Position numbers and translations under genes: made by a program
Part shown: positions 5,931 to 42,387 of the stretch, piece after piece
Layout: each line of letters starts with the position of its first letter
How positions within the stretch are numbered: position 1 is the first letter of the stretch
The notes under the pieces: generated by a model
The model's database searches: none
What the model saw: the letters and a program-made list of their open reading frames with translations, nothing else
What the model was told of the DNA's origin: nothing
NCBI GenBank assembly: GCA_011174815.1
Contig: DUFF01000083.1
Location: 1 to 46,702, forward strand
Direction: 5' to 3'
Origin: Dehalococcoidia bacterium
Lineage (GTDB): Bacteria > Chloroflexota > Dehalococcoidia > Dehalococcoidales > RBG-16-60-22
DNA length: 46,702 nt

Positions 5931-6068
5931 CAGTTGCCTCTAAATACCGGAAGCCCGTCCTAATAACGTATCGACATCTGAAAGGAAAGTATCAACGTTG
6001 GTTCGAAAATCATACCCTTACGCTTCCGCCGCCACGTCTTAACAGCAAATCTAACTAGCTCGCTGGCT

Positions 6069-7961
6069 TTATTTCGCCTGCCTTGCAGAACGTCCGCTTG
6101 CCTTATGAACAGTGAACATGGACAAAACCTGCCGGGCTATTCCTTGGGCATCCAAGCCGTACTTGGCGCGGATTGCCGCCTGAGTCCCCTGCTCAACATA
6201 TTCATCCGGGATGCCAATGTTCTTTACCGGTATCTCACCAGCGCCTAAATCATGCAGCAATCTGGTCACACTACTGCCGAAGCCACCGCTCAAGGTATTT
6301 TCCTCAACGGTAACCAGGCGCGAGATACAGCTCGCCAGACTGGTGAGCAATTCAACATCAAGCGGCTTGATAAAGCGTGCGTTGACCACGGCTGCCTGAA
6401 TCCCGTTTGTCGCCAGCTCATGTGCGGCCTCGAGGGCCGGGGCTACAGTAACGCCGACCGCCAGGATGGCAACATCGTTTCCTTCACGCATTATTTCCCA
6501 GTTGCCAATCTGTATTTTATGTAAAATAGTGTCCAGCGGAACCCCTACACCAGACCCACGAGGATAGCGTATGGCTATGGCCTGGCCTGAGTTCACCGCG
6601 GTATAGAGCAGGTGCTGCAGTTCATTTTCATCCCTCGGCGCGGCAACGCTCAGATTGGGGATAAGCGTCAGGTAAGAGAGGTCAAACGTTCCCTGGTGCG
6701 TTTTGCCATCGTCTCCGACGATACCGCCGCGGTCTACGGCGAAGACGACAGGCAGGTTCTGGAGGCAGACATCATGTATTATCTGGTCAAAGGCGCGCTG
6801 CAGGAAAGTAGAGTAAATGGCGACGATGGGAATGAAACCCTGAGTAGCCAGCCCGGCGGCGAAAGTAACCGCGTGCTGTTCACAGATGCCGACATCATAG
6901 ACACGCTTCGGGAACTCGGCAGCGACGATGCTCAGGCAGTTACCCTCCGGCATAGCCGGCGTTATGGTCACTATCTTGGGGTCATCACGGGTCAGACGAA
7001 GCACCGTCTGGGCAAATACCTCACTGTATGTGGGTATGTTCTGATTGCTGACACGCTGCGCGGGAATGCCGTGGAAATAAACCGCGTTATCCTCAGCAAG
7101 ACGATAGCCTTTGCCCTTGGTAGTCAGAACATGAATGAACACCGGTTTCGAATGGTACTCTTTGGCTTGTTGCAACGCCCGTTCCAGCTCGACAGTATCA
7201 TGCCCGTCAATGGGGCCAATATAGGCAAAGCCCAGTTCCTCCCAGACCATGGTCGGCAAAAGCAGCCCTTTAAATCTTCCCCGGGCCTGCCGACCTACCT
7301 CCCACACCATTTCCCCCAGGGGTAGGGCTTTAATTATCCTGCGGCTCTCTTCCTTCGCCCAGCGGTAGCGGGGGTCAAAACGCAGCCGATTGAGCACTCT
7401 GGCCAAGCCACCCACCGTCGGGGAAATCGACATGCCGTTGTCATTGAGGATTACGATAAGCCTGGAGCCCAGATGGCCGGCGTGGTTCAGCGCCTCAAAA
7501 GCCATGCCGCCTGTTATCGCTCCGTCGCCAATGACCGCTACCACATTGTGGTCATCTCCATGAAGGTCACGGGCGATAGCCATTCCCAGCGCGGCTGAAA
7601 TCGATGTGCTGGCATGGCCGGTGCCAAATGGGTCGTGCGGGCTCTCTTCAGGATTGGTGAAACCGGAAAGGCCACCGTGCTGCCGTAATGAAGCAAAATG
7701 GTCTTTCCTTCCAGTAAGCAATTTATGGACGTAGCTCTGATGACCGACATCCCAGATAATCTTATCCTTTGGGCTGTCAAAGACACGATGCAGAGCTATG
7801 GTGAGCTCAACCACGCCCAGATTGGACGCAAGATGACCACCGGTAACGCTAATGGTGTCAACCAGCTTCTGCCTGAGCTCGCTGGCAAGCTGCTTGAGCT
7901 CGTGCTGGCTCAGCTTCTTTAAATCGGCAGGGTTATCAATTTGGTCAAGCAGTCGAGTCAT
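6069..7961 (-). CDS. dxs: 1-deoxy-D-xylulose-5-phosphate synthase
   Basis: GGHLASNLG, WDVGHQSY, GDGAITGGMAFEALN, DGKTHQG. Confidence 0.97.
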   Translation of the reverse strand: MTRLLDQIDNPADLKKLSQHELKQLASELRQKLVDTISVTGGHLASNLGVVELTIALHRVFDSPKDKIIWDVGHQSYVHKLLTGRKDHFASLRQHGGLSGFTNPEESPHDPFGTGHASTSISAALGMAIARDLHGDDHNVVAVIGDGAITGGMAFEALNHAGHLGSRLIVILNDNGMSISPTVGGLARVLNRLRFDPRYRWAKEESRRIIKALPLGEMVWEVGRQARGRFKGLLLPTMVWEELGFAYIGPIDGHDTVELERALQQAKEYHSKPVFIHVLTTKGKGYRLAEDNAVYFHGIPAQRVSNQNIPTYSEVFAQTVLRLTRDDPKIVTITPAMPEGNCLSIVAAEFPKRVYDVGICEQHAVTFAAGLATQGFIPIVAIYSTFLQRAFDQIIHDVCLQNLPVVFAVDRGGIVGDDGKTHQGTFDLSYLTLIPNLSVAAPRDENELQHLLYTAVNSGQAIAIRYPRGSGVGVPLDTILHKIQIGNWEIMREGNDVAILAVGVTVAPALEAAHELATNGIQAAVVNARFIKPLDVELLTSLASCISRLVTVEENTLSGGFGSSVTRLLHDLGAGEIPVKNIGIPDEYVEQGTQAAIRAKYGLDAQGIARQVLSMFTVHKASGRSARQAK

Positions 7962-7996
7962 CTTACGCCGCCCGCGCCAATAGCTTCAATTACCTC

Positions 7997-8026
7997 ATAC
8001 TAACAATGCCAGAAAGCTATTGTCAA
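7997..8026 (-). promoter_or_regulatory. Sigma70-type promoter for dxs
   Basis: TTGACA-18-TAGTAT with a TG extension, upstream of dxs. Confidence 0.55.
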
Positions 8027-8051
8027 GATAGGAGAAGCCAGCGCACAATCC

Positions 8052-8081
8052 TTGACCGGTTTTTGCCTTTCGTGCTACATT
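8052..8081 (+). promoter_or_regulatory. Sigma70-type promoter for tRNA-Arg
   Basis: TTGACC-18-TACATT with a TG extension, 16 bp before the tRNA. Confidence 0.55.
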
Positions 8082-8097
8082 TGATGGGTAATAGAAT

Positions 8098-8174
8098 GTC
8101 CCTGTAGCTCAGCTGGACAGAGCGGCTGCCTTCTAAGCAGCGGGTCGTGGGTTCGAATCCCTCCAGGGACGCCA
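8098..8174 (+). tRNA. tRNA-Arg (anticodon TCT)
   Basis: Acceptor stem GTCCCTG/CAGGGAC, anticodon arm GCTGC-CTTCTAA-GCAGC, T-loop GTTCGAATC, encoded CCA; 77 nt. Confidence 0.97.
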
Positions 8175-8370
8175 CAGCTCGTCCAGAGCAACTATCTTTC
8201 CCCAAAACTATCTTCCTCCAAAATGTATGCAATGTAGCACTGCGTTATAGCTTTCAAAGACTCCATCACAAGCTGTCAGCGCAAGGAGTTCAATGTGGCT
8301 ACCCTGCCCGAAGCTCCGGCCTCTTTCATATTACATGATCCAAGCGAACTATCATTGCTCATCTGTTTTT

Positions 8371-8408
8371 AGTACTAAAGTAATAGTTGGGCAGTACTAT
8401 TGTAATAG
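8371..8408. promoter_or_regulatory. Tandem 16-bp direct repeat, candidate regulator binding site
   Basis: AGTACTAAAGTAATAG (8371-8386) and AGTACTATTGTAATAG (8393-8408): 14/16 identical, 22-bp period, just upstream of a -35. Confidence 0.55.
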
Positions 8409-8428
8409 AAATAAGTAAGCACCTTTGA

Positions 8429-8457
8429 TTGATTGGCTAAAGAGCACGGGTTAGAAT
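8429..8457 (+). promoter_or_regulatory. Sigma70-type promoter of the signalling cassette
   Basis: TTGATT-17-TAGAAT upstream of the AGGAG RBS of ORF 8494. Confidence 0.55.
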
Positions 8458-8493
8458 TAAATACATTCAAATAGTATCAATAGGAGTCATAAT

Positions 8494-8736
8494 ATGGTGG
8501 TAATGATAAAGGGAAAAAAATACTACCGAACAGCAGAAGTATGTCAAAAGGCTGGAATAAGTAGAAGCACCTTTTTCCGATGGTTAAGGCAGGGGACTTT
8601 TCAGGACGTGGCCAATTTCGATCGTAGAGGATGGAGATTATTTAATGAATATGATTTAAAAAGGCTAAAAGCTGAAGCATCTCAAATAAAACCGGATAAA
8701 AAAGATGAAGTTCCCGAGATGGCCTTCAAGAAATAA
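8494..8736 (+). CDS. Small MerR-type helix-turn-helix DNA-binding protein
   Basis: YRTAEVCQKAGISRSTFFRW...DRRGWRLF winged-HTH pattern; AGGAG RBS. Confidence 0.8.
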   Translation: MVVMIKGKKYYRTAEVCQKAGISRSTFFRWLRQGTFQDVANFDRRGWRLFNEYDLKRLKAEASQIKPDKKDEVPEMAFKK

Positions 8737-8789
8737 GTCCAGATAATCCAAGCCACAGTGGGGCAGATTAATAAAAGACGGATCAGTAC

Positions 8790-10667
8790 ATGAATATACC
8801 ATTTAGGGAAAAACACATCGCGGTCGGCTTGATAATTGCAACTGTTATTGGTATTGTCCTCTGTTTAGCATTTGCCTTTGATTTATTTTATACCTATCAG
8901 CAACGGAGTACCGATTTCTATTTTCAGGCGGCTAACCTACAGCAGAGCTCAGAGCCGCACGAAAACGTTGTTATTGTTAGCATTGATGATAAAAGTTTAG
9001 CGGAATTAGGACACATACAATCTTGGTCGCGATCCCATTATGCTCGACTTATAGACGTGCTGGCGGAAGCTAAAACTAGAGTTATTGTGTTTGACCTTCT
9101 TTTTGCCGAGCCAGCGTCCGGTGATGAAGAACTGGCAACTGCCATCGAAAATGCTGGCAATGTGGTTCTACCGGTTATATATAAGCCGACTTCTACCGAG
9201 TTCACGTCACCACGACAGCTAACCCCAGATGACAGTTTCGTCGAACCACTGGGAATTTTCCAAAAAGCAGCTGCTGCCCGTGGACATGCCAATGTGAACC
9301 CGGATAATGATGGAATCGTACGAAGGTTGTCCGTTGCTTTACACAATGATGATGATTATGAACCTGCCCTGGCATTGGCAGCAGTGGCTCAATATCTGCG
9401 ACGGCCTCAGGTAATAGAGACACCTGTTGGAGATAAAGAGCTGCCCTTTGCCAGCCGCTCCATTCCCCTGGTTGACAATAACGAAATGTTGATCAACTAC
9501 ATGGTTAGCCCGCAGGATATCGGTAGCATAGTGAATTTCCCCATCGTTTCCCTAGTTGATGTCCTACATGGGAATGCTGCCCTTTCCCTTTTTCGAGATA
9601 AAATCGTAATTATCGGGGCCACCGCCAGTGGCCTTGGCGACACTTTCTGGACGCCAATGGGGTCGATGATAAGCGGTGCCGAGGTACATGCCAGCGCCAT
9701 GCATACCATTCTAACCGACAATTTTCTCAAGACCGCCCCTTCCGTGATTACGATTGCGCTGATATTGTTATTGGCACTTCTCTGCGGAATAGCCGTGTTG
9801 TATCTTCGCGTGCTCATAGCGAGCTTAGCGGTCATCTTCCTTTGCTTCGCTTATTTCCTTATCGCTTTCTTCCTTTTTGATAACGGCATCTTGCTCAATA
9901 TGCTATATCCGCCACTGTCTATTATTGCTACGTTTGCGGGATTAAATCTGCATAACCTGGTCATGGAAAGGGCTGAGAAAAGGAAAATAACCGAGACCTT
10001 TGGCCGCTACATATCCCCGCCAGTAGTGGCTGAAATTATGACGACTTTGAAGGAAGGGCGACTGGAGCTGGGGGGTAAGGAACATGAAGTAACCGTAGCC
10101 TTTGCTGACGTCCGAGCTTTTACCTCTATCTCAGAAAAAATGCCGCCAGCAGAGCTGGTAGCGCAATTGAATAGTAATTTGACCGCCGTCATAGAAGCCG
10201 TTCTCAAATTTGGCGGTATGATAAACAAATTCGGTGGCGATAGCGTTATGGCAATTTGGAATGCACCTTTAGATTGCAAAGGGCATCCTTTCTTGGCGAT
10301 AAAAGCAGCAATGAGTGCTCAATCTGGCATCAGAAAACTAAAAGGAAAAGAGAAAAATCTCGTTGGTATGAAGTTTGGTATTGGCATAAATACAGGGGAA
10401 GTGTTGGCGGGAAATCTTGGTTCAGAAGACCGCCTGGAATATTCTGTGGTCGGAGATACGGTCAACATCGCAGCCAGGCTAGCCGATGCTACACCTGGCG
10501 GTAAGGTGTGGATTGGCGCTAATACCTACGAACTGGTAAAAGATGACATTATAGCAAAGCCGTTAAGTCCGTTAACCGTAAAGGGTAAACGCGAACAAAT
10601 TCAAGCTTACGAAGTGTTGGATATTAAGAATGATGAAACGGTAAATGAAAACGTTGAGCAACGATAG
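8790..10667 (+). CDS. CHASE2-domain membrane adenylate cyclase (class III)
   Basis: N-terminal TM; CHASE2 motifs IDDKSL, WSRS.YA, DNDGIVRR, DKIVIIG, SGAEVHA; three TMs; cyclase motifs FADVRAFT, KFGGD, YSVVGDTVNIAARL. Confidence 0.92.
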   Translation: MNIPFREKHIAVGLIIATVIGIVLCLAFAFDLFYTYQQRSTDFYFQAANLQQSSEPHENVVIVSIDDKSLAELGHIQSWSRSHYARLIDVLAEAKTRVIVFDLLFAEPASGDEELATAIENAGNVVLPVIYKPTSTEFTSPRQLTPDDSFVEPLGIFQKAAAARGHANVNPDNDGIVRRLSVALHNDDDYEPALALAAVAQYLRRPQVIETPVGDKELPFASRSIPLVDNNEMLINYMVSPQDIGSIVNFPIVSLVDVLHGNAALSLFRDKIVIIGATASGLGDTFWTPMGSMISGAEVHASAMHTILTDNFLKTAPSVITIALILLLALLCGIAVLYLRVLIASLAVIFLCFAYFLIAFFLFDNGILLNMLYPPLSIIATFAGLNLHNLVMERAEKRKITETFGRYISPPVVAEIMTTLKEGRLELGGKEHEVTVAFADVRAFTSISEKMPPAELVAQLNSNLTAVIEAVLKFGGMINKFGGDSVMAIWNAPLDCKGHPFLAIKAAMSAQSGIRKLKGKEKNLVGMKFGIGINTGEVLAGNLGSEDRLEYSVVGDTVNIAARLADATPGGKVWIGANTYELVKDDIIAKPLSPLTVKGKREQIQAYEVLDIKNDETVNENVEQR

Positions 10668-10678
10668 TGTAACAAAGT

Positions 10679-11287
10679 ATGGATAATAAACGTAATAATA
10701 TTGCCAGAAGAAAAACACTAACGGCCAATAAGCCGGAAAATGTCAGACAAACCGATATCATTATATTGGTTGAAAAAGCTATCGAGGGTAATGTAGAGGC
10801 ATTTGGCGAGCTATACGGCATCTTCCTTGACCGGATTTACCGATATGTTTTCTATCAGGTCAGAGACAGGATGACCGCCGAGGACATAACGGAGGAGGTT
10901 TTTATAAAAGCCTGGAACGCTATCAGTTCCTGCAAGGGGAAAGAAAAGACATTCTCGGCATGGCTTTACCGCATCGCTCACAACCGAGTAATTGATATCT
11001 TCCGTAGTCGAGAAAAAGAACAACTGATTGAGATGGACCCTGTAGCTGAAGCGGGCAGCACCGAATTAGAAGTAGAGACGGAGATAGACCATCGTGAATT
11101 ACTTGATAGCATAGCTGAACTACCTCCGAACCAGAAGCAGGTCATTATTTTGAAGTATATTGAAGGTTTAGATAATCGCGAAATCGAGCGGATAATGGGC
11201 AAGAAGCAGGGAGCGATAAGAATATTGCAAATGCGGGCTCTCGCCAGACTTCGAGAAAGATTAAATGGTGGAGCAGAAGAAAAATGA
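10679..11287 (+). CDS. ECF RNA polymerase sigma factor
   Basis: Region 2 AEDITEEVFIKAW..FSAWLYRIAHN and region 4 LPPNQKQVIILKY..EI..IMG; ~200 aa; overlaps the next gene (ATGA). Confidence 0.92.
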   Translation: MDNKRNNIARRKTLTANKPENVRQTDIIILVEKAIEGNVEAFGELYGIFLDRIYRYVFYQVRDRMTAEDITEEVFIKAWNAISSCKGKEKTFSAWLYRIAHNRVIDIFRSREKEQLIEMDPVAEAGSTELEVETEIDHRELLDSIAELPPNQKQVIILKYIEGLDNREIERIMGKKQGAIRILQMRALARLRERLNGGAEEK

Positions 11288-13044
11288 ATGACAAGTTTTC
11301 CAGAATCCTCGACGAAAGCATTGAAAGGCTGATTAAAGGGGAAACCATAGAATCCTGTCTGGAGGAATACCCGAATGACCGGGAGCAATTAGAGCCCCTT
11401 TTAAATACGGCACAGTTGATTTCCTCTATTCCTAAAGTCTCAGTTTCCGAAAAATACAGTCGCGTATCAAAGGCCCGTTTGATAGCGCGGATCCGTCGGG
11501 AGTCTGTGCAGGCCAGAGAGGCAGAGACAAGATCGGGTATAGGCCTGTTTGATGAGCTGGGCCTCGCCTGGCACCGAATGTGGCAAAGTATACTCGGCGC
11601 CAAAAAGGTTGCCATTCCTGTGGCGCTGGCGTTAATTCTAGCACTCGTATTAAGCGTTTCAGGGTTGCTTAATCATCTATCAACAACCCCGGCTCTCGCC
11701 TCACAGTGTACCCTGACCATACTATCCGGTAATGTCGATGTTCAAATGCCAGGGTCAAATGCCGAAAAGACAGGCACAGATGGGATGACTCTCAATATTG
11801 GTACGAGGGTAAAGACCGCGCCCGGTTCCCATGCCGTTCTCACCTTTTTTGAGGGCAGTACCGTCAAGCTCGAGCCTGAAACCGAAATCGAAATTCAGCA
11901 AATTGAATATGATAACGAGCAGCCCACCGCCATTGTCTTGAAGCAATGGTTGGGCAGAACATGGAGCCGCGTAGTTAAAATGGCTGATCCCGGTTCACAT
12001 TATCAAATAGAAACACCTTCAGCCACTGCCATAGTACGGGGAACTCTATTTACCACCGAGGTTGAAGCAACTGGAACTACAAAAGTAGCGACTACGGAAG
12101 GGCTGGTCAGCGTTGTTGCGCAAGGGGATGAAGTATACCTGCCTGCCTGCCAACAAACTCAGGTTGATGCTGGAGAAGTCCCTTCGCAACCGCAACCGGT
12201 GCCTATCTCCAGGTCTGAAATTATCATCACATTTGATATGCCAGCCACTGGCTCGGTGACTGACCCAACCGGCTCAAGCACGGGGATTTTACCAAGCGGT
12301 TTCTATTTTAACCAGATACCCGAGTCTCAATCCTTCTTGACCGCTGAAGACAGGCAACAGATAAATATTTCAGAACCGATGACAGGAGAGTATATCATTG
12401 CGCTGCGGTACCTCTCTGAGGGGCAAGCACATTTCAACATTCTGGGAGCATCTGATGGCAACGTGGTCTTCAATTATACTGGTAATTGGGGTGCCTTCCA
12501 GGAACACGGATGGCTTATACACCTTGGCATACATGCGGAGAGTGGTCGGATTATAAGCGGTGAAGTAACCTCCGCAGAACCGCTCGGGGAAGAAACCCCA
12601 GAGGATATAGTGGAGGCGCCGTTAGCTGGCGGAAAAGCGTCGAAGATAATGACGCAGGACAGCGATACCAATAGTACTGCGGATGTGGACAAAGGCAAGC
12701 CCGAGGACAAGGGTAAGCCCGAGGACGAGGATAACACCGGGGACAAAGGCAAGCCTGAGGATAAGGGTAAGCCCGAGGACGAGGATAACACCGAGAACAA
12801 AGGCAAGCCCGAGGACAAGGGTAAGCCCGAGGATAAGGGTAAGCCAGATAAGGCCAAGGACGAGAATAACACCGGGAACAAGGGTAAACCTGAGGATAAG
12901 GGTAAGCCCGAGGACGAGGATAACACCGGGAACAAGGGTAAGCCAAATAAGCCCGAGGACGAAGATGCCACCGGGAACAAGAGTAAGCCTGAAAACAAGG
13001 GTAAGCCAAAGGACAAGGATAAACCACCATATTGGTTCTCATAA
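11284..13044 (+). CDS. Putative anti-sigma factor: cytoplasmic N-domain, TM helix, FecR-like domain, beta-rich domain and KGKPED repeat tail
   Basis: Translationally coupled to the ECF gene; TM VAIPVALALILALVLSVSGLL; FecR-like motifs VKTAPGS.A.L.F.EGS.V.L and ETPSATAIVRGT.F. Confidence 0.78.
   Translation: MNDKFSRILDESIERLIKGETIESCLEEYPNDREQLEPLLNTAQLISSIPKVSVSEKYSRVSKARLIARIRRESVQAREAETRSGIGLFDELGLAWHRMWQSILGAKKVAIPVALALILALVLSVSGLLNHLSTTPALASQCTLTILSGNVDVQMPGSNAEKTGTDGMTLNIGTRVKTAPGSHAVLTFFEGSTVKLEPETEIEIQQIEYDNEQPTAIVLKQWLGRTWSRVVKMADPGSHYQIETPSATAIVRGTLFTTEVEATGTTKVATTEGLVSVVAQGDEVYLPACQQTQVDAGEVPSQPQPVPISRSEIIITFDMPATGSVTDPTGSSTGILPSGFYFNQIPESQSFLTAEDRQQINISEPMTGEYIIALRYLSEGQAHFNILGASDGNVVFNYTGNWGAFQEHGWLIHLGIHAESGRIISGEVTSAEPLGEETPEDIVEAPLAGGKASKIMTQDSDTNSTADVDKGKPEDKGKPEDEDNTGDKGKPEDKGKPEDEDNTENKGKPEDKGKPEDKGKPDKAKDENNTGNKGKPEDKGKPEDEDNTGNKGKPNKPEDEDATGNKSKPENKGKPKDKDKPPYWFS
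12688..13026 (+). repeat. Coding tandem repeat (KGKPED; ~54-bp higher-order unit KGKPEDKGKPEDEDNTxx)
   Basis: Repeated AAGGGTAAGCCCGAGGAC-like 18-mers encoding 11 copies of KGKP. Confidence 0.95.
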
Positions 13045-13075
13045 TCATGAGGATAAGAGTCCAGAGATTCAGAAG

Positions 13076-14311
13076 ATGCAGATGGCTTATAACCTGAAAA
13101 ATCACAGTCAAATTGAAAATACTTCTGAAGGCTGCCCCGATCTATCAACCATAGAGCAAAAACTAGGCCACGGATACGTCACAAGCACACCGGAGGCCGG
13201 TACTATGCTGGGTCTTCTCTATGAAGTTGGTAAAAAAATTGGATCGATTACAAAACTAAATAAATTAGTGAAACAAATTACACAGATGACGCAAAGCACC
13301 CTTAATGCGACAGCCTCTTCGGTCCTACTTTTCGACGAGAAAGAGCAAGAATTGTACTTCGAAGTGGCTGAAGGTGAATCGGAAAAAGCTTTGCGGAAAA
13401 TCAAGCTAAATGCCAAATCTGGTATTGCTGGTTGGGTCGCCCAGAACAAAAAGCCAATAATAATTAATGATGTTATGAAGGATCAACGCTTTGATCCAAG
13501 CGTTGATGAAATTACCGGTTTCACCACCAGGTCCATTATCTGTGCTCCTTTATTAGTGCAGCGTAAATTAATCGGCGTTATTGAAGTACTCAATAAGTCA
13601 GATGGCAGTGATTTCAATGGGCGGGACTTGGAAACATTAACCTCGGTAGCATCAACAGCGGCCATGGCTATAGAGAATGCGCAACTGCACCAAACGGTAC
13701 TTAACGCCTATAAAAGTACAATTAAGGTACTTGCGGCAGCCATCGATGCTAAAGACCATTATACCCGAGGGCATTCACAGCGCGTGATGGAATACACCCT
13801 CATGGGGGCTATGCCACTTTCCCTACCCAGAGATGAAATGGACGTTCTGGAATATGCCGGTATCCTACATGACATTGGGAAAATAGGCATTGCCGACAGT
13901 ATACTAAGCAAAGACGGGCAATTGACTGACCGAGAGTGGGAAATAATGCGCCAACATCCTCTGATAGGGTCGGATATGCTGAAAGACATCCCATTTTTAG
14001 AAAAAGCCAGGGTTCTCATCCTTCACCATCACGAAAGATATGACGGCAGTGGATATCCCAATGGCATAAGCGGGGAAGATATTCCGCTGGGTGCCAGGCT
14101 CATAGCTATCGCTGATGCCTTTGATACGATGACCACAGATCGCGCCTATCGTGCTGCACTTAGCGTAGATAGGGCAATTAAAGAATTAGTCAGATACTCT
14201 GGCACCCAATTCTGTCCGATTGCTTTGGAGGCATTTATCTCAGGTTATAACAATCAGCAAAAGAGCCTCGACACTGGAAATGGTAATTACGACCTATCAG
14301 AGAAAGATTAG
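13076..14311 (+). CDS. GAF + HD-GYP phosphodiesterase (start 13076/13082, or 13205 behind a GGAGG)
   Basis: GAF motifs GIAGWVA, D.RFD..VDEITGFTTRSIICAPL; HD-GYP motifs DAKDHYTRGHSQRV, HDIGK, HHERYDGSGYP, IADAFD.MT.DR.YR. The track's 12683 start is an artefact of the repeat. Confidence 0.9.
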   Translation: MQMAYNLKNHSQIENTSEGCPDLSTIEQKLGHGYVTSTPEAGTMLGLLYEVGKKIGSITKLNKLVKQITQMTQSTLNATASSVLLFDEKEQELYFEVAEGESEKALRKIKLNAKSGIAGWVAQNKKPIIINDVMKDQRFDPSVDEITGFTTRSIICAPLLVQRKLIGVIEVLNKSDGSDFNGRDLETLTSVASTAAMAIENAQLHQTVLNAYKSTIKVLAAAIDAKDHYTRGHSQRVMEYTLMGAMPLSLPRDEMDVLEYAGILHDIGKIGIADSILSKDGQLTDREWEIMRQHPLIGSDMLKDIPFLEKARVLILHHHERYDGSGYPNGISGEDIPLGARLIAIADAFDTMTTDRAYRAALSVDRAIKELVRYSGTQFCPIALEAFISGYNNQQKSLDTGNGNYDLSEKD

Positions 14312-14320
14312 AATATATCT

Positions 14321-15094
14321 ATGAACATACGCATTTTGGGAGCACACAATGTTGAATCCAAGAGAACAAGGTGTGTATCGCTGCTTATAGATGATACCCT
14401 GGCCATAGATGCTGGCGGACTAACTTCAGGTTTGTCTGTTTTGGAACAGAACAGTCTTAAGGCAGCCCTGCTAACCCATCAACATTATGATCATATTCGC
14501 GATATTCCGACCTTAGCTTTAAACCTTTCCATAAATGGGAACGGTATTAACGTATATGCTACCCCCAGCGCGTGTAAAGCTATTGAAACCCATTTGCTGA
14601 ACGGCACACTATACCCCAAATTTCAGGAATCAGCGGAAGCAAAACCAGTGATTAACTTTAAATTTGTTGAGCCTTATAAGCGGCAAAAGATTAAAGCTTA
14701 TGAAATCCTGGCGATACCGGTAAGACATGCCGATTCCACAGTTGGTTATCAGGTCAGCAACGGGGCGGGAAAAACGCTGTTCTATACAGCAGACACGGGG
14801 CCCGGTCTGTCTGATTGCTGGCCATACGTGTCTCCCCAATTGCTCGTTGTTGATGTAACCGTACCAAACAGGTTCGAAGAGTTCGCCAGAAAGACGGGAC
14901 ATCTGACTCCAGCGCTTCTCTACAATGAGCTGGTCAAATTCCAGGAGTTGAAAGGATACCTGCCCCAGGTGGTCACCGTACACATGAATCCGGCGTTAGA
15001 ACGAGAAATCAGGGAGGAATTGGGGGTTATTGCCGGAGCACTGGGTGGTGAAATAACCCTGGCCCATGAAGGTATGAGGCTTCACCTCAAGTAA
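14321..15094 (+). CDS. MBL-fold metallo-hydrolase, class II cyclic-nucleotide phosphodiesterase-like
   Basis: IRILGAH, LAIDAG, THQHYDH (HxHxDH), YTADTG, GHLTP, VH; sits next to a cyclase. Confidence 0.8.
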   Translation: MNIRILGAHNVESKRTRCVSLLIDDTLAIDAGGLTSGLSVLEQNSLKAALLTHQHYDHIRDIPTLALNLSINGNGINVYATPSACKAIETHLLNGTLYPKFQESAEAKPVINFKFVEPYKRQKIKAYEILAIPVRHADSTVGYQVSNGAGKTLFYTADTGPGLSDCWPYVSPQLLVVDVTVPNRFEEFARKTGHLTPALLYNELVKFQELKGYLPQVVTVHMNPALEREIREELGVIAGALGGEITLAHEGMRLHLK

Positions 15095-15798
15095 TACGCC
15101 ATACGCATGGGCAGCCCCTTGGCATCAAGAATTAATTTCTCCGGAAGGAAGGACAGCCCCTGCCCTCCATTGGACGCGGTGACCGCCGCCACAAGCGCAT
15201 CCAAAATATCATCTCTGGCCAGCTCTCCACGAGGATAGCTTTTTTCCGCATAACGAACCAATTCTCCGCTACAGGGATAAATAGAACGCAGGACTTCCAT
15301 CTTCTCCAGAAAACCCTCTTTTTTCTTTTTGGAGTATTTCATGGGCATACCGCCATTCAGTGCCCAGAAACACAGCTCCGGATGGGTTTCCAGAATGCGC
15401 GACCTGGCATTCCGGTCACCCAGAAGGAGCTCGTCCACCTGTTTTATCTTATTGATTATGTTCAGGGATTGCCGGGATAGTCCTTTACCCGTGATTTTCC
15501 AGTTCAGTTCATTCGCCTTCTCTGTATCAGCATGAATTACCTCTCTACAGGGAACTGGAAATACACTTGAGCTTCTCTTGCTGCCGAGCAATCTCCGGGC
15601 TTTTTGGTCGCAAACACGCTGTACCGAAGAACCCTGTCTCAATCCGATGGGAATATCAATGAGTATCAGCTTTGAGTCCTGGCAATGCTTCCAGAGATTG
15701 AATATATCAGGGAAGATGTCGGCCCGCCAGTCGTGCCCTTCCCCCAGCATAACAGCGAACCACCCTGTTCTACAAGCATCCACGCCAGTATAGACCAT
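15082..15798 (-). CDS. DUF429-family protein (predicted RNase H-fold nuclease)
   Basis: GVDAC..GW, IDIPIGL, R.CD..AR, ETHPELCF, DDILDA. Confidence 0.85.
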   Translation of the reverse strand: MVYTGVDACRTGWFAVMLGEGHDWRADIFPDIFNLWKHCQDSKLILIDIPIGLRQGSSVQRVCDQKARRLLGSKRSSSVFPVPCREVIHADTEKANELNWKITGKGLSRQSLNIINKIKQVDELLLGDRNARSRILETHPELCFWALNGGMPMKYSKKKKEGFLEKMEVLRSIYPCSGELVRYAEKSYPRGELARDDILDALVAAVTASNGGQGLSFLPEKLILDAKGLPMRMAYYLR

Positions 15799-15859
15799 TT
15801 CTCAAGCCTTCAAAAGTTGAAGAGATTGTGGAGCCAATTGTTTCAGATATTGGGACTCC

Positions 15860-15888
15860 AATATAGCCCTTTACCCGGACTTTGTCAA
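15860..15888 (-). promoter_or_regulatory. Sigma70-type promoter for the DUF429 gene
   Basis: TTGACA-17-TATATT. Confidence 0.65.
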
Positions 15889-15969
15889 TAACTACAAGTA
15901 GCACTACCATTCGGCGTGCGGAAGACAAAGACATGGTAGATAAGGGTCGAGCTGTAATGGGCGGTGTTC

Positions 15970-15998
15970 TTGACAACGCAAAGATTGCGGTGTAAATT
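15970..15998 (+). promoter_or_regulatory. Sigma70-type promoter for the DAK2 gene
   Basis: TTGACA-17-TAAATT. Confidence 0.65.
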
Positions 15999-16043
15999 GT
16001 ACCTAGATTATCTAGGTATCAACTGGAACGTGCGTGTGCCAGT

Positions 16044-17696
16044 GTGGAGCCAGATAAGATGAATGATACCAGAGAAATCGATGGCAAAAACTTCATACAG
16101 ATGTTTAGCGCCGCTACCAATTGGCTGGAAAAGAGCGCTTCAGATATCGATGCCTTAAACGTCTTTCCGGTGCCAGACGGTGACTGCGGCACCAATATGC
16201 TGTTGACTATGCGTTCCTGCATCGAAGAAGCATACCGGTCTGCCGACCATAACGTGTCATCGGTCGTTCAAGCTATGTATCGGGGGGCACTGATGGGGGC
16301 CAGGGGTAACAGCGGCGTGATACTGTCGCAGATCTGGCGGGGCATCGCCAACAGTTTGGATAAAAAGAAGCTCATTGATGGGAACGACCTAGCTGAAGCA
16401 TTGCTTCAGGCAGCGGAAACCGCCTATAAAGGATTAAGCAACCCGGTAGAGGGTACCATGCTGACCGTGATCAGGGAAGTAGCGATGATAGCCAAGGAAA
16501 GGTCGCCTGTGGTTAAAGGTGACCTAGTATCAGTGCTCGATGCCGCCGTCGCAGCCGCAAGGGAAGCAGTAGCCCGTACCCCTGAGTTATTGCCAGTCTT
16601 GAGGGAGGCTGGAGTGGTGGATGCCGGCGGGCAGGGACTATATACCCTGCTGGAGGGTGCCCTGCTTTTCCTTAAAGGTGAAGAGAATCTGATGAAGTCC
16701 GGTAAATCCAAGGTGGTTGCCAGCAGCGCCCCGGTATCCGTGACATCATTCACCGCGACCGATGAAGAGGAAGTACCATACGGTTACTGTACCGAGTTCC
16801 TTTTAAAGGGAAAAAACCTGAACCCGGATAAAATCAGGGATGAACTCAGCACAAAAGGACAGTCACTGATTGTCGTTGGTGATGAATCCACGGTCAGAGT
16901 TCACATACATGTTCCGGACCCAGGTGAGGTGATCCATTATGCCGCCTCTTTAGGCACCATGCACGGTATCAGCATCAGAAATATGGATGAGCAGCACGAA
17001 GAATTCCTGGCCAGGCAAAAGCAGAAAAAGATGCCTTCCGGTAAAATAGGAGTCATCGCTGTAGCCAGCGGCGACGGCTTAACGAAGGTATTTGAAAGCC
17101 TGGGAGCATCGGCTATTGTATACGGTGGCCAAACGATGAACCCGAGTACCCGCGATATGCTTAGAGCGGTCGATACAGTGCCCGCAAACAAAGTCCTTAT
17201 CCTGCCCAACAACGAAAACATAATACTTACCGCCAGACAGGCTGCGTCATTAACCAATAAAGAAGTTGAAGTGATACCAACGGAATCCATACCGCAGGGT
17301 GTGGCGGCGCTTATGGCCTTTGATCCCGATGCTGACCTGCAGCTTAACATTAATTTGATGCAGCGCGAGATAGAGGCGGTAAAAACAATAGAAGTCACGC
17401 ACGCAAGCCGTTCAACAAAGCTAAACGGATTGAATATAAAAAAGGGACAGGTTATCGGCCTCCTGGACGGCAAATTGGTCGCCGCAGGCGACAGTCTCAG
17501 CAGCGTGGTGGATGAGGTACTGAGTTCCCTTAGTTTCGATGAAGCCCAACTGCTAACGATTTACTCCGGGCGCGATGTGCCGGAGGCTGAGTCGAAGAAG
17601 TTGAGCAATGCCATTCAGCGGCAACACCCCTCGCTTGAAATTGAAGTCGTTAACGGCGGGCAGCCGCACTATGACTATATCATATCGCTAGAGTAA
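16044..17696 (+). CDS. DAK2-domain protein (YloV/FakA fatty acid kinase catalytic subunit-like)
   Basis: LNVFPVPDGDCGTNM, GARGNSGVILSQ, VVDAGG, YGYCTEF, GGQTMNPS, GGQPHY. Confidence 0.92.
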   Translation: MEPDKMNDTREIDGKNFIQMFSAATNWLEKSASDIDALNVFPVPDGDCGTNMLLTMRSCIEEAYRSADHNVSSVVQAMYRGALMGARGNSGVILSQIWRGIANSLDKKKLIDGNDLAEALLQAAETAYKGLSNPVEGTMLTVIREVAMIAKERSPVVKGDLVSVLDAAVAAAREAVARTPELLPVLREAGVVDAGGQGLYTLLEGALLFLKGEENLMKSGKSKVVASSAPVSVTSFTATDEEEVPYGYCTEFLLKGKNLNPDKIRDELSTKGQSLIVVGDESTVRVHIHVPDPGEVIHYAASLGTMHGISIRNMDEQHEEFLARQKQKKMPSGKIGVIAVASGDGLTKVFESLGASAIVYGGQTMNPSTRDMLRAVDTVPANKVLILPNNENIILTARQAASLTNKEVEVIPTESIPQGVAALMAFDPDADLQLNINLMQREIEAVKTIEVTHASRSTKLNGLNIKKGQVIGLLDGKLVAAGDSLSSVVDEVLSSLSFDEAQLLTIYSGRDVPEAESKKLSNAIQRQHPSLEIEVVNGGQPHYDYIISLE

Positions 17697-17933
17697 TGGC
17701 ATTCCTCGATTCAACAGACATAACTATTTCGGATAATGCCATCTACTTTCTATTCCACCAGATGTCTAAATGTATTCAGCCTTTTTGTTGATGAAGCAGC
17801 ATTCTCTGATACCAATTAAAAGCTACCGGGATTTTACACTGGTTCCTTTTCCCTAGTATACTTAATTGGCTTGTTTTACCTTCAGATAAACTCGGAAGCC
17901 ACATTTTTTATTTTACTAGGGAGGTAGTCTATC

Positions 17934-19562
17934 GTGAGGGCAATTGATGCGATCGCGGAAGTACTCAAGCGCGAAGGAGTGGATTTTCTCAGCTGTTTCC
18001 CTTCCACTCCGATGATGGATGCGGCAGCGAAAGCGAAACTGAAGCCCATCGTATGCCGGCAGGAACGAGTTGGCGTAGGTATTGCCGACGGTTACAGCCG
18101 TATTTGCAACGGCCAGCGCATCGGGGTATTTGCCATGCAATTTGGCCCAGGTGCCGAGAATGCATTCTCCGGAGTGGCCACCGCCTACTCTGACTCGGTG
18201 CCAGTTCTGTTACTTCCCCTGGGCCATGCCAGCGACCGTTCCGGTATGAAACCCTATTTCAGCTCGGTTCGTAGCTACGATGCGGTGACCAAGTGGGTGG
18301 AGCGTATCAATCTTCCGGAACTGGTGCCGGAAGTTATGCGCCGCGCTTTTTCCCTGCTGAAAATGGGCAAGCCCGGCCCGGTTATGCTGGAAATACCCGA
18401 GGACATAGTAAATAAAGAGGTGGCACCATTTGACTACCAGCCGGTGAAAGCAGCACGTGCCGCCGGCGACCCTCAGGACATCGAGAAAGCAGCACGGATA
18501 CTGGTTAATGACAAGAGCCCATTGATTCATGCCGGACAGGGGGTACTCTACGCTGAAGCATGGCATGAGCTGCTGGAACTGGCCGAACTCCTGCAGGCAC
18601 CTGTGATGACCACCATGATGGGTAAGAGTGCCTTCCCCGAAGACCACCCTCTGTCTTTAGGCACCGGCGCCCGTGTCATGACCAAACCGGTGTACCATTT
18701 CCTGAACAAGGCTAATGTGGTATTCGGTATCGGCTGCAGCTTCTCGCGCCACTACTTTTCCGTCAAGATACCTCCTGAAAAAGTCATCATCCATGCTACC
18801 AATGATGCCGGAGATATAAACAAAAATTATCTGGCTGATTACCCAATCATCGGAGATGCCAGGCTGGTGCTGCACCAGTTCATTGATGCCGTAAAGGACC
18901 TCCTCGGCAATTCAAAAAGGCAGGCCGACATTGCCGGGGAGATAAAGAGGGTAAAAGAAGGATGGATGGCGGAATGGATGCCCAAGCTGACCTCGGACGA
19001 AGTGCCACTCAATCCCTACCGCGTTATCTGGGATTTAATGCATACCATTGACCCGGCCCAGGCAATGGTCACCCATGATGCGGGCAGCCCAAGGGACCAG
19101 CTGTTGCCTTTCTATCCGGCAACACGTCCACGGAGTTACATCGGATGGGGCAAATCTCACGCCCTGGGGACCGGTCTGGGCCTGGCTATTGGTGCCAAGC
19201 TGGCACAGCCGGAAAAGGTGTCCATTAACATCATGGGAGACGCTGCCTTTGGCATGGTAGGGCTGGACTTCGAAACTGCAGTGCGAAACAACATACCCAT
19301 CATAACTATAGTGTTAAACAACTCCACTATGGCCATAGAGGCTCCGGATGAGCCGCTGTCGCAGGAACTTTATCAGTCTCTTGACCTTAGCGGCAACTAT
19401 GCCGGCCTGGGCCGTGAAATGGGTGGTTACGCAGAGCGAGTGGAGACACCAGCAGAAATCGTACCGGCAATTCAGCGTGCCCGCCGGGCGAATATGGAAG
19501 AAAAACGTCCGGCACTGCTTGAATTCATCACCAGTGAAGAGATAACGTTTTCCCTGTTTTAA
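17934..19562 (+). CDS. Thiamine-diphosphate-dependent enzyme, acetolactate-synthase-like family, substrate unknown
   Basis: RQER..ADGYSR, GPGAEN, PGPV.LEIP.D, GDAAFGM...NN ThDP motif; GGAGG RBS before the GTG. Confidence 0.88.
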   Translation: MRAIDAIAEVLKREGVDFLSCFPSTPMMDAAAKAKLKPIVCRQERVGVGIADGYSRICNGQRIGVFAMQFGPGAENAFSGVATAYSDSVPVLLLPLGHASDRSGMKPYFSSVRSYDAVTKWVERINLPELVPEVMRRAFSLLKMGKPGPVMLEIPEDIVNKEVAPFDYQPVKAARAAGDPQDIEKAARILVNDKSPLIHAGQGVLYAEAWHELLELAELLQAPVMTTMMGKSAFPEDHPLSLGTGARVMTKPVYHFLNKANVVFGIGCSFSRHYFSVKIPPEKVIIHATNDAGDINKNYLADYPIIGDARLVLHQFIDAVKDLLGNSKRQADIAGEIKRVKEGWMAEWMPKLTSDEVPLNPYRVIWDLMHTIDPAQAMVTHDAGSPRDQLLPFYPATRPRSYIGWGKSHALGTGLGLAIGAKLAQPEKVSINIMGDAAFGMVGLDFETAVRNNIPIITIVLNNSTMAIEAPDEPLSQELYQSLDLSGNYAGLGREMGGYAERVETPAEIVPAIQRARRANMEEKRPALLEFITSEEITFSLF

Positions 19563-39256: not shown

Positions 39257-39765
39257 CAGTCATCAAGCCCCCTGATAAGCGCTCCCGCCCTCTCCCCGAA
39301 ACCAGTAAGCTCCAGCCGGCGTCTCTGCGGAGCGAGCACCTCAAACTGCACCTGCAGATAATCTTCCGGCAGGATAGATAATACTTTCTCCGCCCACTCC
39401 AGCACGATGACCCCGTCCTCCCGGGCTAGATAATCAAGCATCCCGATTTCAAATCCATCTTCAATATCGTCGATTCGGTACAGGTCAACGTGAAAAACGG
39501 GAAGTCGCCCCCGGTACTCGTTGACAAAGGCAAAGGTGGGGCTGCTGACCTCCTTTTCCGGAATACCCAGGCCGGTACACAGACCACGGGTGAAAAGCGT
39601 TTTGCCACAACCAAGCTCACCGACCAGGGCGATAACACCACCATCAGTCATTTTTTCGCCCAATCGTCTGCCTAAACGCAGCGTAGCTGCCGGGCTATTA
39701 CTCAAAAAAACGTACGTCGATGCGATGGTTTTCGAAGTTGACATTCTCTGATAGTAGCTGGTCAT
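39256..39765 (-). CDS. tsaE: t6A biosynthesis ATPase TsaE
   Basis: GELGCGKT, VSSPTF, HVDLYR, EW. Confidence 0.95.
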   Translation of the reverse strand: MTSYYQRMSTSKTIASTYVFLSNSPAATLRLGRRLGEKMTDGGVIALVGELGCGKTLFTRGLCTGLGIPEKEVSSPTFAFVNEYRGRLPVFHVDLYRIDDIEDGFEIGMLDYLAREDGVIVLEWAEKVLSILPEDYLQVQFEVLAPQRRRLELTGFGERAGALIRGLDD

Positions 39766-39902
39766 TCCCCTTGACGGTAGTATATCACAATGTCAACTTA
39801 TCGTCAGCGATGGATATTTAAGGTTTTATTTGCATTTAGTTGGTGTGCTATGACAAATAAATGGTATCCTCTACTTAAACAAATAGTAGGGGGATTAAAT
39901 AA

Positions 39903-40319
39903 ATGGCTACTATTAAATCAGCTTGTAAGAGATTGTGGGTGTGGCTTACCACAAACACCTATAAGCCACCACCAGATACAGTTGGTCAAAGGCGAGCTAA
40001 AATGATACTTCAAGGAATAGCAAACTTAATGATTGCACTTTTAGGCATTTGGTTAGCGTGGGTGGAATTTGGCTCTGTTATCTTTAGAGCGAATCTATTT
40101 TGGTTAATAGTAGGAGTATGGGTTTACTTAAGTTTTGCAATGTTCTTGTCCCGATGGGATGAGGCTGCAAAGAAAACGACGAGTGATAAGGTGGATGATT
40201 TAGATGCGAAGTTAGATGGTTTAGGCACAAAGTTTGATGACCTAGTTAAAGAAATGAGGGGATTACGAGCGGATTTAACAAATAGGGGGGATAATAATGG
40301 AATTAATAAAAACAAATGA
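39903..40319 (+). CDS. IS passenger: 2-TM membrane protein with C-terminal coiled coil
   Basis: AGGGGG RBS, two hydrophobic segments, heptad-like tail; overlaps the transposase start. Confidence 0.7.
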   Translation: MATIKSACKRLWVWLTTNTYKPPPDTVGQRRAKMILQGIANLMIALLGIWLAWVEFGSVIFRANLFWLIVGVWVYLSFAMFLSRWDEAAKKTTSDKVDDLDAKLDGLGTKFDDLVKEMRGLRADLTNRGDNNGINKNK

Positions 40320-41768: not shown

Positions 41769-41788
41769 GACAACAGTGACACAATATT

Positions 41789-42241: not shown

Positions 42242-42387
42242 AACCCCTTTCCTTGTTCGTTAATGGCCATCATAGTAGCACCTTATTCTGTCTTTATCAA
42301 AGGTAAGACGCGCAAACATATTATGTATCTTATGTATCCTCCTTTTTGATTACCTCATACGCACTATTGCTGATTCTAAAATAGAAC

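Follow-up and report, generated by a model that had tools for sequence, protein, structure and literature searches.

The pairing of CHASE2 receptors with FecR-domain proteins is already known, and so are gene clusters that combine a CHASE2 cyclase, a FecR protein and a cyclic AMP (cAMP) phosphodiesterase, as well as GAF-HD-GYP enzymes that are activated by cAMP. Here we compare these systems with a six-gene cassette at positions 8494-15094 of a 46,702-nucleotide contig from a Dehalococcoidia bacterium (DUFF01000083.1 in assembly GCA_011174815.1; C86 in our numbering, and hereafter the window), which encodes a MerR-type helix-turn-helix (HTH) protein, a CHASE2 class III cyclase, an extracytoplasmic function (ECF) sigma factor, a FecR-domain protein, a GAF-HD-GYP protein and a metallo-beta-lactamase (MBL)-fold hydrolase. 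Our preferred reading, to which we would give a probability of roughly 0.45, is that the cassette, an operon of marine-sediment Chloroflexota of the Dehalococcoidia type, can move horizontally and turns one extracytoplasmic cue into three coupled outputs. The CHASE2 receptor-cyclase would make cAMP upon the cue, while its FecR-domain partner, fused via a transmembrane (TM) helix to a cytoplasmic anti-sigma domain, would free the ECF sigma factor in the same event. The GAF domain of the HD-GYP protein would read cAMP, and its HD-GYP domain would then hydrolyze cyclic di-GMP (c-di-GMP), whose source might be the single conserved GGDEF protein (~1020 amino acids) of this lineage. Finally, the MBL phosphodiesterase would remove cAMP and reset the system, and the MerR-type protein would control the operon's own sigma-70-type promoter via two direct repeats.

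Clusters of a CHASE2 cyclase, a FecR protein and a cAMP phosphodiesterase, in some cases with a TPR protein, have been described in Campylobacterota (PMC9239204), and they resemble the cassette both in combining a CHASE2 class III cyclase with FecR and a phosphodiesterase and in having a patchy distribution that suggests horizontal transfer. However, in the accessible part of that report the FecR protein is placed in the outer membrane and lacks an anti-sigma domain, the cluster has no ECF gene but includes a TPR protein, which the cassette lacks, and no GAF-output or HTH gene is described there (PMC9239204). In S. meliloti, the pathway of the CHASE2 adenylate cyclases CyaD1 and CyaD2 likewise includes a FecR-domain protein, the periplasmic SMc02177 (PMC5498481), but in the available sections of this report the role of reader falls to the CRP-like regulator Clr, among whose targets is the FecR-domain gene, and no ECF pair, HD-GYP or MBL protein is mentioned. 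The 'BiofilmReg' operon of Burkholderia, which consists of a response regulator, a LysM/FecR protein and a CHASE2 histidine kinase, also encodes a secreted FecR-domain protein beside a CHASE2 receptor; as far as the accessible text describes it, the output is a histidine kinase, with neither a cyclase nor a sigma factor, and in 2016 the factors sensed by CHASE2 were stated to be not known (PMC5192318). Considering that the receptor in the Burkholderia case is a kinase, the pairing of FecR with CHASE2 appears to be independent of the output domain of the receptor. In S. meliloti, cyaD1 presumably adjoins smc02177, judging from the locus numbers.

The FecI/FecR/FecA and PupI/PupR/PupB systems share with the cassette an ECF gene followed by a gene for a single-pass FecR-domain membrane protein. 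Unlike these systems, the cassette lacks a TonB-dependent transducer (none was found genome-wide), the N-terminal domain of its FecR protein is not recognizably a FecR/PupR anti-sigma domain, and the partner proposed here is the CHASE2 cyclase. In addition, PupR has an STN-like subdomain after the FecR fold, whereas the cassette protein continues with a beta-sandwich (residues 311-433) and a disordered tail; only 138 of the 213 residues of the PupR target structure 6ovk can be aligned. The GAF-HD-GYP architecture of the fifth protein is also found in Tlr0485 of Thermosynechococcus vulcanus and PmGH of Persephonella marina; in the accessible parts of their accounts neither is described beside a cyclase, sigma factor or FecR gene, and Tlr0485 is likened to the cassette protein by description, not by sequence. 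We found no description of an ECF/anti-sigma-FecR pair within a CHASE2 cyclase operon in the openly accessible literature (the supplements of ECF classifications lay outside this search). An earlier note on this DNA, whose author knew of no characterized system with the full combination, agrees with this literature as far as the ECF pair is concerned; CHASE2-FecR-phosphodiesterase clusters, however, were known (PMC9239204). What appears to be new is that a CHASE2-associated FecR domain is joined to a cytoplasmic domain linked to ECF genes, that the sigma gene lies inside a cAMP operon in a lineage in which no TonB-dependent receptor was found, and that the slot for GAF-output proteins is exchangeable.

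Gene order of the cassette and its receptor-cyclase

The cassette lies in a genome of 1.57 Mb (103 contigs, 84.6% complete), and the names of its nearest database homologues point to Chloroflexota, Dehalococcoidia/Dehalococcoidales. Based on Pfam matches and the list of open reading frames (ORFs), its six tightly packed genes are all on the plus strand, and the following features were assigned to them and to the region upstream.

8371-8408, plus strand: pair of direct repeats, candidate operator (alignment of loci)
8429-8457, plus strand: sigma-70-type promoter-like site (consensus scan)
8494-8736, plus strand: MerR-type winged-HTH protein, 80 amino acids (Pfam MerR_1)
8790-10667, plus strand: CHASE2 and class III cyclase protein, 625 amino acids (Pfam CHASE2, Guanylate_cyc)
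10679-11287, plus strand: ECF sigma factor, 202 amino acids (Pfam Sigma70_r2, r4_2)
11284-13044, plus strand: FecR-domain putative anti-sigma factor, 586 amino acids (Pfam FecR, AlphaFold model)
13076-14311, plus strand: GAF-HD-GYP protein, 411 amino acids (Pfam GAF and HD_5)
14321-15094, plus strand: MBL-fold hydrolase, 257 amino acids (Pfam Lactamase_B_2)

The intergenic gaps are, from 5' to 3', 53, 11, -4, 31 and 9 nt, the negative value being an ATGA overlap between the stop codon of the ECF gene and the start codon of the FecR gene. The six co-directional genes that the earlier note had described were all confirmed at their coordinates, with a single correction for the fifth gene: its listed ORF begins at 12683, inside the FecR gene, whereas translation probably starts from the ATG at 13076, past the FecR stop codon. 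Since the genes are co-directional and separated by short gaps, and since a conserved promoter-like site and repeats are present upstream of the first gene only, their interpretation as one conserved operon-like unit is supported. Intrinsic terminators predicted within the operon (10 versus 8.1 expected) were uninformative.

The second gene encodes a protein with strong matches to CHASE2 (PF05226; 194.9 bits over residues 21-333) and Guanylate_cyc (69.2 bits). Hydropathy and Pfam analyses place a TM helix at residues 7-37, an ectodomain at ~38-310, a TM region at 311-385 and the cyclase domain at 430-605, which corresponds to the architecture of CHASE2 receptors, i.e., a domain between an N-terminal TM helix and a TM block that is followed by a cytoplasmic output. 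In an alignment of 46 homologues, D440, D484 and N559 show no variation, and K480, S552 and R563 are kept in at least 90% of the sequences; based on established knowledge of the family, we take these positions to be the metal-binding Asp, substrate-binding Lys/Ser and transition-state Asn/Arg residues. The best match in the PDB is the adenylate cyclase CyaB of P. aeruginosa (3r5g, E 3e-30), in which K480 and S552 align to Lys and Thr, respectively; in the guanylate cyclase Cya2 (2w01), Glu and Gly occupy these positions. These data support the previous assignment of the Lys and Ser/Thr pair to ATP-using class IIIb enzymes, and the protein thus has ATP-type residues, with cAMP as its probable product. 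It is the sole class III cyclase and the sole CHASE2 protein found in the genome. Among the homologues in other genomes (L, G and C numbers are our handles for loci, genomes and contigs), three contain one in-frame stop codon each (TAG, TAG and TAA), including those of L035 (G016:C31) and L156 (G231:C3), which may be explained by pseudogenes or assembly errors.

The ECF sigma factor and its putative FecR-domain anti-sigma factor

Homologues of the cyclase were searched for in 363 genomes of the same order (E <= 1e-60), and 51 loci around them were mapped with hidden Markov models (HMMs) built from the window proteins and their orthologues, with Pfam checks on subsets. A FecR-domain ORF is present in 41 of the 51 loci, and five of the ten loci without one are cut by contig ends. 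An ECF gene was detected in 21 loci and an N-terminal anti-sigma domain in 20, the sole ECF locus lacking this domain (L144) being cut by a contig end. Two types of loci could be distinguished. In type A, the cyclase is 41-65% identical to that of the window and the genes are arranged in the order cyclase-ECF-(anti-sigma-FecR) in 18 loci, while L141 and L142 (and the truncated L144) have the order cyclase-ECF-GAF protein-MBL-(anti-sigma-FecR). In type B, the cyclase identity is 33-43% (48-49% in L036 and L146), and the FecR gene adjoins the cyclase gene with no sigma gene; the FecR proteins have a hydrophobic N-terminus, which by eye is lipoprotein-like in L039, and those of L037, L038 and L041 end in DUF11/DUF7507 repeats according to Pfam. 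The stable core of the cassette in one Dehalococcoidia clade is cyclase-ECF-(anti-sigma-FecR), which is found in 20 loci.

Outside the order, 80 loci from a multi-phylum sample were scanned with the same lineage-built, and hence insensitive, HMMs. A FecR-domain ORF was found in 19 of them and an ECF gene in three, in none of which it is adjacent to the cyclase gene, and neither the anti-sigma N-domain nor the cassette HTH protein was detected in any of the 80. The statement that CHASE2 cyclases are often neighbored by FecR proteins is therefore borne out both within the order and in other phyla, and the FecR-CHASE2 link appears, from these comparisons, to be ancestral.

The ECF sigma factor of the cassette comprises regions 2 and 4 only (202 residues; Sigma70_r2, 60.2 bits; r4_2, 46.5 bits; Pfam) and scores 104 bits against TIGR02937 (cut-off 42.9). 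No subfamily cut-off was reached; the top-scoring subfamily, the BldN-type TIGR02952, stays below its own cut-off with 158 bits. Three sigma-70-family genes were found in the genome, two of which, including this one, are ECF genes. The FecR-domain protein encoded next to it matches PF04773 (40.2 bits versus a cut-off of 24) and has a single hydrophobic segment at residues 102-134. Its AlphaFold model, based on a 46-row alignment, contains N-terminal helices at 3-47 and 56-83 (a domain of residues 1 to ~90), a TM helix at ~102-134, a FecR/PupR-like beta domain (142-294) and another beta-sandwich (311-433), the last two with a predicted local distance difference test score (pLDDT) of ~95, and a tail (448-586) that is disordered in the model and contains KGKPED repeats encoded by 18-nt tandem repeats at 12660-13043. 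Foldseek matched the beta domain 142-294 to the PupR CCSSD (6ovk_R) and to a putative anti-sigma factor of Bacteroidetes (4m0h/4m0n) with a probability of 1.0 and a target TM-score of 0.52. Homologues of the FecR protein differ in tail length (proteins of 447-1026 amino acids), and a metagenome contig of sequencing run X7 has a 9-nt insertion after position 12905 within the KGKPED-coding repeats, implying that the repeat length varies between strains.

Several lines of evidence suggest that this protein is a putative anti-sigma factor whose cytoplasmic N-terminal domain may sequester the ECF sigma factor. Besides the ATGA overlap and the topology of the protein, an ECF gene lies alongside in all 20 loci in which the N-terminal domain is present, while the 21 FecR proteins without this domain have no ECF gene in any of their loci. 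The same N-domain (55.5 bits) recurs, together with DUF5667, in a 368-amino-acid protein encoded after the other ECF gene of the genome (C8:667-1224). Moreover, the ectodomain fold resembles that of PupR, and the classical partner of Fec/Pup proteins was not found: there was no TonB_dep_Rec match and no candidate receptor in the genome at its 84.6% completeness, and none was seen in the related loci scanned with Pfam. With no such receptor found, the CHASE2 protein becomes the closest candidate for a partner of the FecR protein. As an aside, the C8 gene pair is followed by a SIMPL/DUF541 gene, and this region (L167; G000:C8:667-2335) seems to encode another sigma/anti-sigma pair with an anti-sigma protein of the same kind.

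Considering these data, it is possible, though in our view rather doubtful, that the CHASE2 receptor has replaced the TonB-dependent transducer, passing the cue sideways to the FecR anti-sigma protein and at the same time making cAMP for an exchangeable GAF-output protein. A contact between FecR and CHASE2 would be needed for the coupling that we propose, and an attempt to predict the complex (CHASE2 residues 38-314 with FecR residues 131-445, 46-row alignments for each) gave a score of 0.00 versus a mark of 0.32; as the prediction was made without controls, it is neutral on binding. Alternatively, the cassette might comprise two co-inherited modules that signal separately, with the cyclase sensing its own ligand and the ECF/anti-sigma-FecR pair responding to another one or to envelope stress. 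The ectodomain contact is indeed an inferred one, ECF/anti-sigma pairs are self-contained elsewhere, as exemplified by the C8 pair in the same genome, and in L141 and L142 the FecR gene is two genes away from cyclase-ECF. Against such separation, the FecR domain has homologues in the FecR proteins encoded beside CHASE2 cyclases in loci without an ECF gene (35-43% identity by tblastn; HMM scores 176-260), all 20 anti-sigma N-domain proteins lie in cyclase loci (a biased count, as the loci were fetched via the cyclase), and no TonB-dependent partner was available to the FecR protein among the genes found. We therefore regard two separate modules as unlikely and retain a shared cue for the cyclase and the sigma factor as the preferred reading.

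Proposed cAMP reader, cAMP eraser and control of the operon

The GAF-HD-GYP protein scores 132.9 bits against HD_5, and its motifs 'LHDIGK' and 'HHHERYDGSGYP' are intact in the translation. PmGH (4mcw) can be aligned to residues 44-391 (E 1.5e-64), and the closest solved HD-GYP relatives, namely PmGH, V-cGAP3 and a c-di-GMP phosphodiesterase, act on cyclic dinucleotides; thus we propose that the protein may be a c-di-GMP phosphodiesterase. Its GAF domain matches GAF domains of the cyclic nucleoside monophosphate (cNMP) type, including 5w10 (E 2.5e-26) and those of PDE5, PDE2, PDE10 and CyaB2 (E up to 6.6e-15), and it carries an 'NK...FxxxDxE' variant of NKFDE, the motif of cNMP-binding GAF domains. 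No other clear HD-GYP match was detected in the genome.

Comparison of the loci provides additional information about this position in the operon. Of the 12 type A loci that could be judged, 10 have a GAF-output gene (seven of the HD-GYP kind and three of the kind found in L141), whereas L138 and L148 have none. In L141 and L142 the same slot is occupied by a GAF-HisKA-HATPase_c protein whose GAF domain is 56% identical to that of the window over 176 residues, while the outputs are unrelated. Another GAF kinase is encoded directly after the CHASE2 cyclase in L042. In L043 (G012:C320:1545-3266, minus strand), which belongs to the same genus, a single 573-amino-acid CHASE2-HD-GYP protein was found, the HD-GYP part of which is 61% identical to that of the cassette; this locus sits on a 3.3-kb contig. 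CHASE2-HD-GYP fusions are among those listed in a preprint with an HD-GYP census, none of them characterized. The likeness to cNMP-type GAF domains, the retention of GAF while the output is swapped, the kinase of L042 and the fusion of L043 together make the GAF domain the probable reader of cAMP, as in Tlr0485, and the previous view that the reader of this system is unknown can be replaced by this proposal.

It had also been proposed that the HD-GYP and MBL proteins are two dedicated erasers, with a FecR-like sensor driving both ECF release and cAMP synthesis and the reader located elsewhere. Both proteins are of phosphodiesterase type with intact metal sites, no GGDEF gene was found in this genome, and three cNMP_binding proteins are encoded elsewhere in it, outside the window, which could be the readers instead, although by eye (a weak judgment) they seem to lack the usual phosphate-binding Arg. 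On the other hand, the closest solved HD-GYP relatives use cyclic dinucleotides and we met no cAMP-hydrolyzing HD-GYP protein in the literature; the histidine kinase that replaces HD-GYP behind a retained GAF domain in L141 and L142 cannot erase; and a GGDEF protein (open frame of 1008-1031 amino acids) is present in 10 of 10 related genomes tested, five with and five without the cassette. Because of its presence in all these relatives and the 84.6% completeness of the genome, the missing GGDEF gene is probably an assembly gap. Two erasers with a reader elsewhere therefore seem distinctly unlikely to us, and the HD-GYP protein is more likely a reader than a second eraser, while the MBL protein remains the proposed eraser of cAMP. 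The remark that no GGDEF gene and no CRP-type effector is present holds for the window; elsewhere the genome encodes the three cNMP_binding proteins, and its lack of a GGDEF gene is, as stated, probably an assembly gap. Another link between a cyclase and a c-di-GMP enzyme was observed in L156 (G231:C3), where a GAF(partial)-GGDEF-HD-GYP protein is encoded ~4.5 kb from a type B CHASE2 cyclase/FecR pair (Pfam), and the HMM match recurs at the same place in L160 (G233:C9).

The MBL protein matches Lactamase_B_2 (59.6 bits) and has the motif HQHYDH, compared with the class II phosphodiesterase signature HxHLDH. Among 70 sequences, no variation is seen at H53, H55, H58, H136, D158 and H194, and D57 and H221 are kept in at least 90%, so that the HxHxDH motif is accompanied by the His, Asp and His ligands of MBL-fold phosphodiesterases of the RNase Z/PhnP/YhfI branch. 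A model of high confidence (pLDDT 97.7) retrieved YhfI (6kns), the class II cAMP phosphodiesterase PDE1 of yeast (4ojv, TMq 0.82), BA1088, RNase Z, PhnP and Apyc1 in Foldseek searches, with 1zkp, 1y44 and 3g1p among the top matches, and in a profile search of the PDB, PDE1 was matched at E 1.4e-16 over residues 44-255. It may thus work like a class II phosphodiesterase without being a member of that family, and it is a candidate for the enzyme that removes cAMP. Members of the same MBL family are encoded near CHASE2 cyclases in 12 of the 51 loci (8 of type B) and also in L050, and an MBL gene is present in four of eight type A loci that could be judged.

The HTH protein scores 25 bits against MerR_1, which is above the cut-off, and matches HTH_17 and AlpA weakly (Pfam). 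Since it covers positions 1-47 of 69 of MerR_1, i.e., the HTH half alone, without the C-terminal coiled-coil/effector domain, it seems to be a MerR-like stand-alone DNA-binding domain. A profile search of the PDB gave weak matches to N-terminal domains of the MerR family (5e01 at E 0.009, and also RacA). It may resemble small proteins such as BldC, a likeness that no search recovered. The HTH gene is present in 5 of 20 type A loci, and the protein is 57-67% identical in six other loci. Upstream of the gene, the promoter-like sequence TTGATT-N17-TAGAAT is found at 8429-8457, both hexamers of which are conserved in position across six aligned loci, and it is preceded by two copies of AGTACTAWWGTAATAG (8371-8386 and 8393-8408; 22 nt from start to start). 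These are the only exact matches in the genome, and matches with two mismatches are no commoner than for a control; in the alignment, the repeats are conserved in L027, altered in L033 and L040, poorer in L028 and absent from L029. They may serve as the operator to which the HTH protein binds.

Where the HTH gene is missing, phased TTTA[CT] repeats together with an element of the form 'TATCAtCATAG' are common to the regions upstream of the cyclase gene. L031, L034, L135, L137, L138, L140, L145 and others have four such repeats with a phase of ~11 nt, 150-200 nt before the cyclase start, and a near-palindromic 'TATCAtGATA'-like element also lies upstream of the cyclase gene in these HTH-less loci; L032, L139 and L137/L034 carry 'ACTAAAGTAnTAGT', which resembles the operator repeat of the window. 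Elsewhere in the genome of the window (L169; G000:C98:9299-9814), a MerR_1 protein with the HTH motif of the cassette is encoded directly upstream of a HisKA/HATPase kinase.

Distribution of the cassette and its insertion beside a tRNA gene

Cyclase homologues were found in 54 of the 363 genomes (own genome included); of the 131 genomes of high quality, 20 have one. Among 15 other genomes of the genus, the count is three at E <= 1e-60 and four at E <= 0.001. These low counts indicate a patchy distribution in both the order and the genus. The six genes had been treated as a set in the earlier note; it is the core of cyclase, ECF and anti-sigma-FecR genes that is kept together in 20 loci, whereas the full set in the order of the window is found again in a single locus of the 51 (L027, from the same genus), many other loci being cut by contig ends. 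The first five genes are present in L028, L033 and L134; the contigs of L028 and L033 end ~0.5 kb beyond the fifth gene, and in L134 there is no MBL gene in the 2.85 kb that follow it.

Together with the absence of a GGDEF gene and the three cNMP_binding proteins mentioned above, the rarity of the full set weighs against our preferred reading, and several further points do so as well. L138 and L148 consist of cyclase-ECF-FecR with no GAF protein or MBL gene within 5.8-6.1 kb downstream, so the downstream genes seem to be dispensable. The N-terminal domain of the FecR protein has no match to a known anti-sigma family in Pfam (21 members) or in a profile search of the PDB; the one lead is an Atlas match (0.84) to a cluster in which 12% of the members are zf-HC2 proteins, and the genome yielded no zf-HC2 protein. 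We identified no target promoter of the ECF type. The MBL protein scores 22.2 bits against the class II phosphodiesterase family PDEase_II (PF02112), below the cut-off of 23.7 and over residues 43-133 only, and a close paralogue on C50 (9410-10180; L168), encoded after CorA and Vut_1 transporter genes, implies that this MBL family is not specific to the cassette.

The question of mobility was approached from the flanks of the cassette, for which the relevant features are as follows.

8098-8174, plus strand: tRNA-Arg gene, anticodon TCT (ARAGORN); its 3' end is the left edge of the variable region
8175-17911, no strand: insertion of 9.7 kb relative to G009 (blastn versus congener loci)
15082-15798, minus strand: DUF429 gene, convergent, overlapping the final 13 nt of the MBL gene
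16044-17696: FakA/Dak2-like paralogue, inside the insertion

As noted before, the cassette is an AT-richer block right after a tRNA gene. Its GC content is 0.461 (flanks, 0.547 and 0.542; genome, 0.539), that of 8175-17911 is 0.470 (flanks, 0.54), and the block begins at the 3' end of the tRNA-Arg gene. Blastn alignments of five congener loci stop at 8136-8175, four of them at the tRNA 3' end (8172-8175) and the fifth (L045) at 8136, where its own contig ends. In L047 (G009), the homologue of window positions 17912-19480 begins 10 nt past the tRNA gene, implying that 8175-17911, which contains the cassette, the DUF429 gene and the FakA-like paralogue, is an insertion relative to G009. The content past the same tRNA gene differs in four congeners; in G007 the genes encode a REC-domain protein, a radical SAM protein and a FakA paralogue, in G001 an MFS transporter, and in G006 a PALP enzyme and a cupin. 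In both G006 and G001 the cassette is located elsewhere, amid unrelated flanking genes. The FakA-like gene of the insertion is 56% identical to the copy on C23 of the genome and 80% identical to that of G007, which is likewise near the same tRNA-Arg gene.

A tRNA-linked integrative island in the strict sense was considered and rejected: the ORFs of 8175-17911 include no integrase gene, the tRNA 3' end is not repeated even when as many as three mismatches are allowed, and no long repeats were found. Apart from the coding KGKPED repeats, no informative direct or inverted repeats were found in 7900-16100. No transposase accompanies the cassette in the loci scanned with Pfam, and no tRNA gene was found near the cassette in any of 17 loci scanned (L027-L043). 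One contig of DNA run X4 (depth 5) links 8173 directly to 18247, with 30 nt on its shorter side and at a likeness threshold of 90; this contig may derive from an island-free relative in the sample and is counted only as a hint. In a second low-GC block of the window (0.38-0.46 at 39500-44500), which is probably another insertion, small ORFs without annotation flank genes for a DDE/rve transposase (40297-41283) and a universal stress protein (42481-42954).

A variable insertion beside a tRNA gene that contains a cyclase might also be a Pycsar-like anti-phage island for cyclic-nucleotide defense at a tRNA hotspot. In PADLOC, the cyclase domain matches the PycC models (85 bits) and the HTH protein matches mad1 (31 bits), and the MBL fold resembles the anti-Pycsar nuclease Apyc1. 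However, the PycC models represent homologues of class III cyclases, so that any class III cyclase would match them; no effector-type match was detected, and no PADLOC families were hit by the other six proteins tested. The Lys/Ser pair of the cyclase is that of ATP-using enzymes, the CHASE2 sensor is extracytoplasmic, and the neighbors are regulators. A defense island is therefore highly improbable, and the preferred reading of a movable signaling operon is kept.

With regard to its occurrence, at least 96% of the sampled words of the cassette are present in six DNA runs labeled as marine sediment or seawater metagenomes, which come from five studies (one run is possibly the source sample). 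RNA run X20 contains 0.06 of the cassette words, in short contigs only. Uncovered bins in X7 (8604-11641) and X20 are no evidence of absence. Contigs of the RNA library match six short stretches of 6000-19000, four of which are inside the cassette, and one of these (14239-14398) spans the junction of the HD-GYP and MBL genes. They are a weak hint of expression, as carry-over of DNA is possible, and neither transcription nor an operon is established thereby.

All parts of the cassette come from known families, and their roles are deduced from sequence, models and gene context. If CHASE2 has indeed replaced the TonB-dependent transducer, a reading that we hold rather doubtful, one receptor would feed a sigma factor, cAMP and c-di-GMP or a phosphorelay, with the CHASE2-HD-GYP fusion bypassing cAMP, and this would offer a mechanism for the widespread and unexplained pairing of FecR and CHASE2 genes. 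If the FecR protein is an anti-sigma factor, its contact with CHASE2 could be read out as ECF-dependent transcription, which would make the pairing directly testable in a heterologous host, and the exchangeable GAF-output slot provides comparative evidence for a relay from cAMP to c-di-GMP or to a phosphorelay. Since the cassette contains the only cyclase, the only clear HD-GYP protein and one of the two ECF sigma factors found in this small genome, its gain or loss at a variable tRNA locus would shift much of the signaling capacity of the organism.

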